A stretch of 40,142 nt of DNA, taken from the UHGV virus genome UHGV-0061378; one strand, 5' to 3'. Below the pieces are notes generated by a model. That model did not search any database. It was not told the DNA's origin and saw only the letters and a list, made by a program, of their open reading frames with translations. Numbering within the stretch: the first letter of the stretch is position 1; every line of letters begins with the position of its first letter. Position numbers and translations under genes: made by a program. This document shows, one piece after another, positions 1,289 through 35,937 of the stretch. Source of the DNA: a virus.

Positions 1289-3235
1289 TTAAAGAATAAT
1301 TCTTTCAACCTTCCAAGTTGCAGATCTACTTCCTGAAATTCCAACTCCATTTGAATCTTTGAGAAGAATTCTAAATGATGTTTCTGTTACCAAATCATAC
1401 GTTACATTTATTGCTGCGCCATCTCCTATCGATATTGAGATAAAATCAGGCACAACTCCAAGTCCGTGAGTTATTATTTGTCCATTTGAATAAACCCCAG
1501 TTCCTATTTTAGTCGTTGCATACCCGGCATTGTTTGCAAGGACAACATTAACCGAATTTGCTCCTAATTTAGCAATCTTCCTATCAGATGAAATCTCTGT
1601 AGATTGTATTGCATTATTTGAAATAACTGCATCTTTTATAGCCCTGAAATCTCCAGGTGTTCCTGATACAGCATTAACAAGTATTGCATACTGCATACTT
1701 CTATCACTTCTTTTATTGCCGAAAGCATTACCGCAAATTGTTGTCCCGGTAAATCCAGATGCTCCCGTGTTATCAAGAAGAATTCCGCACCTATATGTAT
1801 TTGATGTATCAGAAGGCAAACCTATACCTCTTATGGAATTATTGGATACTATATTATTATCTGGCTTGACATTTGCATTATTGCAGTAAATGCGAATTCC
1901 AACATCACAAAATGCATCTAATACATTATCAGATATAACATTACCCGCTCCCCACACATCAATACCCATAAACGAATCAGCACCATCTCCAAAAAATTTA
2001 TTTTGAGTAACTATTGTTCCGCTACCCCTAATCAATATAGCAGGCCTTGGAATGCTTGAAGTCTTTTTGCTATCATTGTAGCCATGATTATCGTTTATAT
2101 GAGATTCCCCCCCCGCACTATCTATGCAGCAATTACACGAATCTATTATATTTTTATTTATCCTTACATAGACAGAATCGTGTTTTATACCTGTAATAAA
2201 ATTTGATATGGAATTTGATACAAAACTAGTTGCCTTACATGGCAATGAAACGCCATGTATAGCGTCCTTAGACGCTCCTATGGCAACAAAATGTATCCCT
2301 GTAACAATTGCTGGGTTCTCATTAGATGATGTGTCACCTATGGTAATAGCAAAAGAATTCTCATCTTCAGGACCATCAATTGTTAATATCGTTTGTGGCG
2401 TATATCCTTGAGATATTTGCGATCCATTTCCTGAACCAAACCCTCTCATACTTACAAAAGATGGGATTCTTAGTTTTTCTGTTACTCTACAGTTGCCCCC
2501 CCAAAAAAATTCCTCTTTAACATGGGCAGCGGCCAGCATGATTGGAATTGTATCATCTTTAACTCCATCAAGCGTCGCTCCATAATTTCTAAGGTCATTG
2601 GTTTCATACCCATTTAAATAACCAATACATCTCCATCCTGTTGAGGTATATCTGGCAAATTTATCATCTGGGGGAACAGTAAAAGGAGGAACTGTCATTT
2701 CTCCTCCAGTTATTTCATTTTCATATACCCAAAACAACCCATCATAATCTTTGATTGCGCATCGGTTGTCACGAATGATATTTTGCTTGTCATAGTTCCC
2801 ACAATATGAAAAACCAGTTGCTAATTTCTGTAGATTTGTTCCTGATGCTGAGTTTATTAATGATGCGCCATTTTCGCTAGTTAATACATTATTTAGAGGG
2901 TCAGGATCATACTTCAGCACATTAGGAAAATAGAACTGCTGCGCACCGTACGCATCATAAACAGCCATAGAATGGCCTTGCACGGTTACGAATTTGGCAA
3001 TCTGTCCGTTATATACCGGATATCCGGCAGCGTTAATGATTATTGGTTGCGAAACAGGAACGTGAGAACCGTCTTCGTTCTCCACATAAACCTGAATCTG
3101 GTTTTCAGGATTTACAGGGTCAGTGTCAATTTTACCGATATAAATTTTGCCATTGGCAACCGCTTTAAAAGAACGCGCCATAGTGAAAAGTTGCGAAGGC
3201 ATCGATACGATCACATTGGCTGTAATGTCTGTCAT
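1289..3235 (-). CDS. Tailspike protein: P22 gp9-type head-binding N-domain fused to a divergent receptor-binding domain
   Basis: 648 aa. First ~110 aa ([46 protein letters not shown]...) match the remembered P22 tailspike N-terminus; the remainder is not P22-like and looks AT-rich by eye. Confidence 0.9.
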
Positions 3236-3335: not shown

Positions 3336-4214
3336 TCAGTAGTTATGTACTGAAGGAGGTAATTCTTTATTCTTAAGTCTCATCCATGCGGAAAGATTCG
3401 TTGGTCCGTCTGGCTCATTAATATCAACATCTCGTGTGTGATTGATTAAAACGTCTCTCGCCATTCCGATAACATACGAGAACTCATGACCGTAGTCGTA
3501 GCATCTGCCGGAATAGTTCGATTGAATTTGTTTTAATGCCGGATACAGTTCGCGGAATAATGCCTGTGAACGGTTAGCATAATCCCATAGCCATACAAGG
3601 CTGTTTGCTTCTTTTTCAGAAAGCTCGTTTGCTTTCTTCTCTTGTTTGCCGACAAACTCGCCTTCAAGCACTACCCTGTGGATGTACTCTACGGCCAGCG
3701 GGATTTGTTCAATTGAAAGTTCATCAATGCTGTCAATACCAAAACGCTGATGAACCATATTGTATGCATCGTCATAGCGAAGTCCTTTCTTTCCTACCAG
3801 CATGTTTACTGCATCGCGTAGCGGCGTTCTTTCCTCAACAGTGGTTTTCTTGCCTTTCACATACTCGCCATGTTTGCGAATTGAAGGTAGAACTTCTGCT
3901 GTTACCCACTTGCGGAATTTGTGCGGGACCGAACCTTTATTGACAGCATCGCGGCAGCGCAGAACCAATGTATACATACCTGATTCGCTAACAATGCTTA
4001 GATTCTGCTCACCACCAAGGGTGTAACTTAAAGTTACTCCCTTTTCATCGTCATCAAGTGCAGTAAGCGCCTTGCGTGAGTTAGTCAGGGTTAAAGCATC
4101 ACAAACATCTTTTGCTACAAACCACGGCTCACCGCATTTGTTGATGACGCGGATTTCACTGTCGCCGAATTTGAAGATGGTGAAATCGTTTTGTGCCTTT
4201 GCTATACTTTTCAT
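3336..4214 (-). CDS. ant: Antirepressor with BRO-N type N-terminal domain
   Basis: Sits in the ant position of the immI region; start at internal ATG 4214 ([11 protein letters not shown]...) with AGGAAA SD, not the track start at 4280. Domain call from memory of BRO-N antirepressors. Confidence 0.75.
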
Positions 4215-4282
4215 GTCAATATTTCCTAATCCGATTTGTTGATACCGAAGCCCTGACTGTTCCCGCAGTTGGGGCTTCAACT

Positions 4283-33539: not shown

Positions 33540-33601
33540 GGAGCAATGTCGCTCGTAATTAAACAGGAGCCGACTTGTTCTGATTATTGGAAATCTTCTT
33601 T

Positions 33602-33628
33602 GCCCTCCAGTGTGAGGGCATTTTTTTG
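33602..33628 (+). terminator. Rho-independent terminator inside the pL operon (tL1-like)
   Basis: GCCCTC-CAGTGT-GAGGGC followed by ATTTTTTTG. Confidence 0.75.
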
Positions 33629-33951: not shown

Positions 33952-34026
33952 GCGCGGCTTTACCGCATACCAATAACGCTTCACTTGAGGCGTTTTCGTT
34001 ATGCAATCAAACAGAAGGAGCATCCT

Positions 34027-34197
34027 ATGCAACAGTTCGCTATTGCAGGGGCGGCATCGGTTCGCCCTTTCAACCCGATTTTATCGGTACAGCATTCACG
34101 AAAAAATATTTTAACCGGAGCAGACTTTAAACAACCAAGAATGAAAAGTTTGCTCGAAAAGCTTTGGGATATTTTGAAACAACAAGGCCGTCCATGA
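34027..34197 (+). CDS. Possible CIII-like protein
   Basis: 56 aa from ATG 34027 (AAGGAG SD): MQQFAIAGAAS...MKSLLEKLWDILKQQGRP loosely resembles lambda CIII (MQYAIAGWP...LIDILNQPG). Confidence 0.4.
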   Translation: MQQFAIAGAASVRPFNPILSVQHSRKNILTGADFKQPRMKSLLEKLWDILKQQGRP

Positions 34198-34364
34198 GTT
34201 TTACGGATAACTGGTCAGACGAAGAATTCATTCGTCAGATAAAAGAATTAATCGGCAACGAAGGAGATATTCATGTCACTTGCAACCACAGTGAAGGAGA
34301 GCAAGTTACAGAGACGCATGTACACGCAGCAGGCGTTAATGTATCGCCAGAAGGGGGATCGTGA
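34194..34364 (+). CDS. Small hypothetical protein (kil position)
   Basis: 56 aa; ATG overlaps the previous stop (ATGA). Confidence 0.4.
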   Translation: MSFTDNWSDEEFIRQIKELIGNEGDIHVTCNHSEGEQVTETHVHAAGVNVSPEGGS

Positions 34365-34453
34365 AGGTGTTCGCGTATTTTTAAATGCGGCAAAGACTGA
34401 AGTATTAAATCAGCGTTATTTCCTTGGGCCATGTCCATTCTGAGAACAAACAT

Positions 34454-35059
34454 ATGAGCAAAGAATTTTACGCAAGACTGGCAGCTATTCAGGAGAATCT
34501 GAACGCGCCAAAAAATCAGTACAACTCATTCGGTAAATATAAATACAGAAGCTGCGAAGATATTCTTGAGGGTGTTAAGCCGTTACTGAATGGCCTGTTT
34601 TTATCAATCAGCGATGAAGTTGTGTTGATTGGTGATCGGTATTACGTGAAAGCAACGGCAACTATTACTGATGGCGAAAACAGTCATAAAGCAACCGCTC
34701 TTGCACGAGAGGAAGAAAGCAAGAAAGGAATGGATTCTGCACAAGTTACGGGAGCTACAAGCTCTTATGCACGCAAGTATTGCCTCAATGGTTTATTCGG
34801 CATTGATGATGCGAAAGATGCAGATACAGACGAGCATAAACATCAGCAGAACGCAGCAGCAAAGCAATCAAAACCATCACCTACATCTGAACAGGTTCTA
34901 AAAGCATTCACTGACGCAGCAATGCAGAAAAACACCTTAGAAGAGCTTAAACAGGCGTTCGCCAAAGCGTGGAAGATGCTCGAAGGCACACCGGAGCAGC
35001 ACAAAGCGCAGGACGTTTACAACATCAGACGAGACGAATTAGAAGGAGCGGCTGCTTAA
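34454..35059 (+). CDS. erf: Erf single-strand annealing protein
   Basis: 201 aa MSKEFYARLAAIQENLNAPKNQYNSFGKYKYRSCEDILEGVKPLL..., closely matching remembered P22 Erf. Confidence 0.9.
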   Translation: MSKEFYARLAAIQENLNAPKNQYNSFGKYKYRSCEDILEGVKPLLNGLFLSISDEVVLIGDRYYVKATATITDGENSHKATALAREEESKKGMDSAQVTGATSSYARKYCLNGLFGIDDAKDADTDEHKHQQNAAAKQSKPSPTSEQVLKAFTDAAMQKNTLEELKQAFAKAWKMLEGTPEQHKAQDVYNIRRDELEGAAA

Positions 35060-35442
35060 TGGCACATTCGATTACTGTAAGACTAAACAAGCCCGCAAGA
35101 GAGTTTCAGGCCGGGGAAAATATCGGATTCAACATCCGTGCTGGCGTTCAGTATTACGATCGCCAGACAAAAAAGAAAGAATGGACAAACTACAGCGCCG
35201 TTGTATTTGCCAAGCCGGGAGCGCAAGCGGATTACTACCGTAGTGTTCTTGTTGAAGGTGGCATTGTGGAAATTACCGGAGAAAACATCAGGGTTGATGT
35301 TTATCAGGGGCAAAATGGTCAATCAATCACTCTTGAATTACTGAATGCAAAGATTGGATTTGCAGCTTCAGGAAATGGCCCGCAGCAGCAAAGCAGTAAC
35401 CAGCAGAACACTCCTGTATACGACGATTCCATCCCATTCTGA
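35059..35442 (+). CDS. SSB-like protein with host-SSB-type C-terminal tail (DDSIPF)
   Basis: 127 aa; ATG overlaps the erf stop (TAATG); Gly/Gln-rich linker followed by an acidic tip ...PVYDDSIPF like the E. coli SSB tail. Confidence 0.7.
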   Translation: MAHSITVRLNKPAREFQAGENIGFNIRAGVQYYDRQTKKKEWTNYSAVVFAKPGAQADYYRSVLVEGGIVEITGENIRVDVYQGQNGQSITLELLNAKIGFAASGNGPQQQSSNQQNTPVYDDSIPF

Positions 35443-35465: not shown

Positions 35466-35762
35466 ATGCCAGCGCCTCTGTATGGTGCGGATGACGCGCG
35501 CCGCTGTTCCGGCAATTCCGTATCGGAGGTGCTGGATAAATTCAGAAAAAACTACGACCTGATAATGTCGCTACCGCAGGAAACGAAAGAGGAAAAGGAA
35601 TTTCGCCACTGTATATGGCTTGCAGAGAAAGAAGAACGAGAGCGAATTTACCAGACATCAATCAGACCATTCCGCAAAGCCACATATACCCACTTCCCTG
35701 AATATATCGACCCGCGCCTGCGTAATTACCGCTCACGCTATGGCGCTATCAGTAATGACTGA
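35466..35762 (+). CDS. Abc2-like anti-RecBCD protein
   Basis: 98 aa [57 protein letters not shown]..., matching my recollection of P22 Abc2; sits after erf as in P22. Confidence 0.65.
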
Positions 35763-35772
35763 GGAATTTACC

Positions 35773-35937
35773 ATGAGAGGACTTGCATACAATCCCGGCA
35801 TTCTTCCGGCAGAAATGATTATTCGCCAACGCGTAAAGCCAATGCCATCGAGAGAGGAATTACTTAAGCGAGAGAGTTTCGGTTCTGTTAATGACAACAA
35901 ATATCTGAATGCGATGTTGCGGAGTGGGAAGAAATGA
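35773..35937 (+). CDS. Small hypothetical protein
   Basis: 54 aa from ATG 35773 (GAGGA SD); stop overlaps the next start. Confidence 0.4.

Follow-up and report, generated by a model that had tools for sequence, protein, structure and literature searches.

The stretch of DNA analysed here, referred to as the window, is a virus genome of 40,142 nt (UHGV-0061378) that is P22-like overall, with integrase, tailspike, Ant, structural genes, repressor, and an early-left operon. At its 5' end, the integrase gene (14-1207, + strand) is followed on the opposite strand by the genes for the tailspike (1289-3235) and the Ant antirepressor (3336-4280), and the whole has the appearance of a full P22-like genome cut open at int. 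The best PHROG match of the tailspike is of the colanic-acid-degrading type. Our subject is ssb-1b, a small gene of the early-left operon that lies between erf and abc2 (Table 1).

Table 1. Features of the ssb-1b locus, in window coordinates
Feature	Coordinates	Strand	Remarks
Two overlapping small ORFs at the arf position, 5' of erf	34194..34443	+	phrog_2123, 3.5e-39 (first ORF)
erf, single-strand annealing protein	34454..35059	+	201 aa; PF04404, 1.1e-44; phrog_155, 2e-57
Ribosome-binding region and TAATG stop/start overlap with erf	35043..35061	+	
ssb-1b gene (HK97 gp40 orthologue)	35059..35442	+	127 aa plus stop
OB-fold domain, aa 1-103	35059..35367	+	AF2 model, fold matches, hhalign
Disordered linker, aa 104-119 (SGNGPQQQSSNQQNTP)	35368..35415	+	16 aa, Q-rich
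Acidic C-terminal tip, SSB-Ct-like, aa 120-127 (VYDDSIPF)	35416..35439	+	
abc2, RecBCD (RecC)-binding modifier	35466..35762	+	PF11043, 4e-62, full length; phrog_656, 3e-56
DUF2737 small gene, 3' of abc2 in such modules	35773..35937	+	PF10930, 4.7e-30; position as HK97p28

The ssb-1b reading frame runs from the ATG at 35059 to the TGA at 35440-35442, giving a product that reads MAHSITVRLNK...NTPVYDDSIPF. A longer, GTG-started reading from 34969, which overlaps erf in another frame, was rejected; since the homologues all begin with MAHSITV or MSHT..., the ATG at 35059 is the real start. The sequence AAGGAG lies at 35043-35048, 10 nt 5' of this ATG, and within TAATG (35057-35061) the start codon (35059-35061) and the erf stop codon TAA (35057-35059) have one A in common. 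An earlier note, made from the letters of this DNA, had called the gene translationally coupled to erf, and the overlap upholds that claim: the junction GCTTAATG, with its TAATG, recurs unchanged in 79 of the 80 related loci from viruses, and translation of ssb-1b probably follows directly on that of erf. The neighbours named in the same note, Erf and an Abc2-like protein, also proved right, with a genuine abc2 downstream and erf upstream, each matching its Pfam family (Table 1).

No sigma-70-like promoter matches were found between 33500 and 36500, where 4.5 were expected from shuffled sequences, and their absence from this interval is consistent with genes internal to an early-left operon. 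The same interval contains 8 terminator-like hairpins against 2.7 expected, including two on the + strand, at 33601-33620 and 33975-33994, that flank gene 17; the hairpins are probably tL terminators, read through under antitermination. The small ORFs at the arf position (34194-34364 and 34273-34443) have the layout of HK022 42.1/42, while HK97 has 2 extra nt there and one 83-aa ORF instead of two. In position, 34194-34443 of the window corresponds to HK75 Gp33, reported in a 2026 preprint to suffice for triggering P2 OLD defence.

Comparing the window with known phages, we found that ssb-1b shares 97.4% nucleotide identity with HK97 gp40 over 384 of 384 nt and 95.3% with HK022_40, which has the corresponding position in HK022. 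The order erf-gene-abc2-DUF2737, the TAATG junction, and the DDSIPF end are the same in all three, and the differences are allelic only, falling mostly in the linker (TPVY versus HPEY classes). From its AlphaFold 3 fold, HK97 gp40 has been named "SSB-1b" by Casjens, Smith and co-workers (Genome Res 2025, PMC12315714), so that the SSB identity of this type of gene was already predicted in print; these authors could recognise hardly any or no similarity to SSBs at the sequence level, and they describe the SSB-1b proteins of lambdoid Rec modules as not yet studied by experiment. HK75 Gp31, which is encoded between erf and abc2 and treated as uncharacterised in a 2026 preprint, is presumably the same gene.

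AlphaFold2, run for a single chain on an alignment of relatives, gave the ssb-1b protein a classical OB fold (pLDDT 85, pTM 0.71). The domain of residues 1-103 is modelled with a pLDDT of 84-96 per 10-residue block, its strands spanning 3-8, 14-18, 21-34, and 39-51, then 69-74, 76-84, 87-95, and 98-103, with a helix (55-63) between strands 39-51 and 69-74. When the PDB was searched with this model by Foldseek, the top 50 matches were exclusively SSB or PriB chains (best E 3.6e-5), and in BFVD, a collection of predicted viral protein structures, the named matches were nearly all annotated as SSB. PriB, with its single SSB-type OB fold, scores nearly as high as SSB in fold searches; it differs in being a chromosomal primosome protein and not a phage Rec-module gene. 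PriB has neither a disordered linker nor an acidic IPF tip.

Homology to SSB also emerges from sequence profiles. The protein matches phrog_44, "single strand DNA binding protein", at 2.9e-27; since PHROG families are remote-homology clusters that probably include SSB-1b already, this match does not count as independent evidence, and such evidence was therefore sought elsewhere. Searched singly against Pfam, the protein had zero matches at E<=1, PF00436 included; against TIGR00621 it scored 13.5 bits, short of the curated cut-off of 53.95; and sequence searches of the PDB, whether started from the protein or from the family profile, yielded no significant match, the top one being the SSB of S. 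coelicolor at E 0.55. In hhalign comparisons with E. coli SSB (EcSSB), a profile of close relatives reached 86% probability and a profile of 70 diverse members reached 97.1% (E 4.7e-11), the latter alignment covering ssb-1b residues 22-94 and EcSSB residues 31-102. Moreover, PF00436 was matched directly by 6 of the 70 distant family members. Because of the 97.1% profile match and these direct PF00436 matches, we take the SSB-1b family to be a diverged branch of the SSB superfamily and not a mere look-alike. The description of the product as SSB-like in the earlier note is thus borne out by both model and profile, and, in contrast to the published account (PMC12315714), sequence homology of SSB-1b to SSB does show by profile comparison.

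The likeness to E. coli SSB and other canonical SSBs (PF00436, TIGR00621; the "SSB-1" of ES18/Sf6) extends over the whole protein, from the OB fold with its helix between strands 3 and 4 and the aromatics at stacking positions to a disordered linker, Q/P/G-rich in canonical SSBs, and an acidic D-D-x-I-P-F tip. However, identity to canonical SSBs is 10-19%, with the ssb-1b protein under the curated HMM thresholds, and SSB-1b forms a small family separate from them. The protein is also more compact: it has 127 aa, 16 of them in the linker, where E. coli SSB has 178 aa, about 55 of them in the linker.

In the hhalign alignments, on which all residue equivalences to EcSSB rest, Y32, W42 (or Y45), F50, and Y82 of the ssb-1b protein align with W40, W54, F60, and W88, the base-stacking residues of EcSSB. 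The register is ambiguous at W54, which two alignments match to W42 or to Y45. Among 70 members, the residue is aromatic at W42 and at Y45 in all 70 and at F50 in 69, followed by Y82 (56/70), Y33 (55/70), and Y32 (35/70). Charge differs along the protein, from a basic OB domain (pI 9.0) to an acidic tail. Judging by these aligned positions, the OB domain would be expected to coat single-stranded DNA. His55 of E. coli SSB, a residue important for the tetramer interface, is not conserved in the ssb-1b protein, where it aligns with Thr43 in one hhalign alignment.

ssb-1b is a constrained coding gene under purifying selection: for 57 alleles of close relatives, pN/pS is 0.14 over the OB part, 0.15 over the linker, and 0.08 over the tip. 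Across the same alleles, pS rises from 0.05 in the OB part (35059-35367) to 0.35-0.42 in the linker and tip (35368-35442), and the tails fall into two classes, TPVYDDSIPF and HPEYDDSIPF. There seems to be a second mosaic joint here, inside ssb-1b at the domain border. The first lies within erf: the Erf of the window is 99% identical to that of HK97, and both share 90% identity with P22 Erf in residues 2-152 against 31% in the C-terminal 49 residues (153-201).

The tail closely resembles that of host SSB. Residues 107-120 have a pLDDT below 50 in the AF2 model and are disordered, and beyond them the protein ends in YDDSIPF, a close match to the FDDDIPF end of E. coli SSB. Across the 40 kb of the window, read in six frames, the pattern [DE][DE]x[ILVMP]PF occurs a single time, at the C-terminus of ssb-1b, and the DDSIPF end is not a chance motif. 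In the family, the commonest tips are DDDIPF and DDSIPF; P126 is invariant and F127 is present in at least 90% of the 70-member alignment; and an acidic-x-[I/L/P]-P-F tip forms the exact C-terminus in 66 of 121 full-length representatives, with several more having one extra residue. The tail is thus a selected feature of SSB-1b, and the earlier claim that this C-terminus mimics the E. coli SSB tail stands, now extended to the family. The segment between OB domain and tip ranges in the family from 7 to 91 aa, with a median of 39 aa against 16 aa here, and is composed of 26% Q, 15% P, and 13% A.

Such a tail could also serve by itself. As a decoy, it would compete with host SSB for partners such as ExoI, RecJ/RecQ, RecO, or Ung, titrating them off host single-stranded DNA or towards phage DNA, and DNA binding would be secondary. 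The tip does copy that of the host almost perfectly, is under stronger constraint than any other part of the gene, and follows an unusually short linker. However, the OB domain is equally conserved and retains aromatics at stacking positions that a pure decoy would not need, and OB domain, linker, and tip are kept together across the family, so we consider a decoy, whichever way its partners were drawn, quite improbable. A diverged SSB remains our preferred reading of the protein.

The ssb-1b gene is common and poorly annotated, although its family is small. When 1.84 billion representatives were searched exhaustively by HMM (E<=0.001), only 213 members were obtained, as representatives at 50% identity. 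A database search returned 318 relatives, zero of them with a precomputed Pfam domain, mostly labelled "hypothetical" and in a few cases called SSB by JGI; their alignment consists of a conserved stretch some 100 residues long, a Q/P/A-rich segment of varying length, and a conserved acidic tip. Among complete E. coli genomes, 579 of 5426 (about 11%) contain ssb-1b, with the RefSeq label "hypothetical protein", and Stx1a, Stx2a, and Stx2c converting phages carry it. The exact protein of the window is present on at least 1000 public contigs and belongs to a UniRef cluster (90%) with the name "Bacteriophage HK97 gp40".

Mapping the gene neighbourhoods of this family, we found the order erf-ssb1b-abc2 in all 80 viral loci with the Erf type of the window. 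Among distant members (28-60% identity), some lie directly 3' of an ERF-family gene and others have no recognisable annealase alongside; of six such contexts sampled, three have an annealase directly upstream. A prophage of Leminorella grimontii (L086, 3001-3417) encodes a 52%-identical SSB-1b directly after a Sak4/AAA_24 gene, with the same 1-nt overlap as in the window, and its early region also encodes a homologue of the DNA polymerase III theta subunit (PF06440) and a Lar restriction-alleviation gene. In a metagenomic phage (L088, 3540-5352), erf-ssb1b is followed by a 288-aa gene without a Pfam match and an RdgC-family gene (PF04381), the two standing where abc2 would otherwise be.

These contexts bear on whether the protein serves recombination or replication. 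A general replication SSB of the phage would coat the lagging strand and recruit host Pol III chi or PriA by its tail, and its adjacency to erf would reflect operon organisation. The tail is essentially that of the host, which binds replication proteins, and some distant members sit in early regions without a recognisable adjacent annealase. However, replication genes of lambdoid phages belong to the early-right operon, whereas ssb-1b lies inside a tightly packed Rec module (PMC12315714), and an annealase is directly upstream in all the close loci and in half of the distant contexts sampled. A mainly replicative role is therefore unlikely in our view, and it would be compatible with a role in recombination.

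The slot between annealase and abc2 is filled by different genes elsewhere, including abc1 in P22, canonical SSBs in other P22-like phages, and HkaK in HK620. A GenBank remark on HK022 calls the gene in this slot a "likely analog of P22 Abc1", which would make it a RecBCD modulator acting alongside Abc2. Position between erf and abc2 is what the two have in common: P22 Abc1 has 94 aa and lacks both the OB architecture and the IPF tail, BLASTP against the ssb-1b protein returned zero alignments at E<=100, and homology was rejected. Since P22 Abc1 has no similarity to the ssb-1b protein, the remark is positional only. With the fold and architecture of an SSB, and with the slot filled by canonical SSBs in P22-like phages and by a biochemically proven SSB in HK620, an Abc1-like function is the least probable of the alternatives, and we give it very little weight against an SSB of the recombination module.

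The P22 type of Erf shows how flexible this slot is. After the P22-type C-terminal domain, the next gene encodes Abc1, in place of a phage SSB, at 49 loci and a canonical SSB at 31 loci, and the domain itself is nearly unchanged. Covariation of the Erf C-terminal domain with its downstream partner was thus rejected, the P22-type domain being the same with Abc1 or canonical SSB; divergence of this domain as a specificity for tails was likewise rejected, the IPF tip being common to all SSB types, and no covariation between the domain and the SSB tail was found in the loci sampled. The divergence of the Erf C-terminal domain may be plain mosaicism with linkage. At 19 of the canonical SSB loci (within L093-L172), the SSB has 168 aa and ends in ...PFPRHAIHAI instead of ...DDEIPF; perhaps the allele is frameshifted or extended and its tip masked, in which case PF would not be C-terminal. 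Because P22-type Erf works without any phage SSB, a phage SSB is probably an accessory for Erf and not a requirement, an enhancer more than an essential partner.

HkaK (SSB-2) of HK620 is the best functional precedent for SSB-1b. It occupies the same slot between annealase and abc2, has an acidic tail with a PPF end, and is cognate to Sak4. According to Hutinet et al. [quoted passage not shown] HkaK is not homologous to bacterial SSB according to Casjens and co-workers (PMC12315714), and a relation to ssb-1b was rejected, the sequences being unrelated (hhalign probability 0.35%). HkaK works with Sak4 and not with Erf, and one SSB-1b member likewise follows Sak4. Annealases of the RecT type, too, recognise the last 7 residues of SSB (bioRxiv 10.1101/2020.04.14.041095). 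By analogy with such systems, the ssb-1b protein may stimulate Erf, and its tail may have partners through which it cooperates with Erf and Abc2.

Taken together, we conclude, with a probability of roughly 75%, that ssb-1b encodes a divergent, compact phage SSB of the HK97 gp40 type in a P22-like/lambdoid recombination module. P22 Abc2 binds RecC and alters the action of RecBCD at DNA ends. In the mechanism we propose, ssb-1b would be made from the early-left transcript along with erf and abc2, and Abc2, by binding RecC, would change RecBCD action at DNA ends so that single-stranded DNA arises. This DNA, or that at replication forks, would be coated by the OB domain via its conserved aromatics, while the short flexible linker would display the host-like YDDSIPF tip. 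Docking of Erf and/or host SSB-interacting proteins by the tip could then turn the SSB coat into an annealing platform and not a barrier. A more specific version, in which SSB-1b is a dedicated adaptor that, thanks to its very short linker and its tip like that of the host, outcompetes host SSB on the phage's recombination intermediates, hands these to the annealase encoded just upstream (Erf or Sak4), and draws host nucleases and helicases such as RecJ, RecQ, or ExoI to modules lacking a nuclease gene, is a tentative extension that we think doubtful. If it were true, at least three non-orthologous SSB types (SSB-1, SSB-1b, and the HkaK-type SSB-2) would be interchangeable cassettes in one slot, and the acidic PF tip would be a common currency of phage annealases.

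To the published fold prediction, our analysis adds profile-detectable SSB homology, conserved stacking aromatics, a family-wide tip, and pairing with both Erf and Sak4. It also points to an annotation gap: a gene this common is a "hypothetical protein" in RefSeq and has no Pfam family, and a family HMM would mend thousands of such entries. Cognate pairs of annealase and SSB improve the portability of recombineering (bioRxiv 10.1101/2020.04.14.041095; PMC5928155), and Erf plus SSB-1b is a ready candidate pair. Phage SSBs have also been reported to trigger retron-type defences, and, speculatively, the presence of ssb-1b might make a difference to the defence systems that a phage triggers. As for the phages themselves, their Erf-SSB-Abc2 modules lack a nuclease, and an SSB tail resembling that of the host could plausibly serve them to bring in host enzymes and to load Erf.
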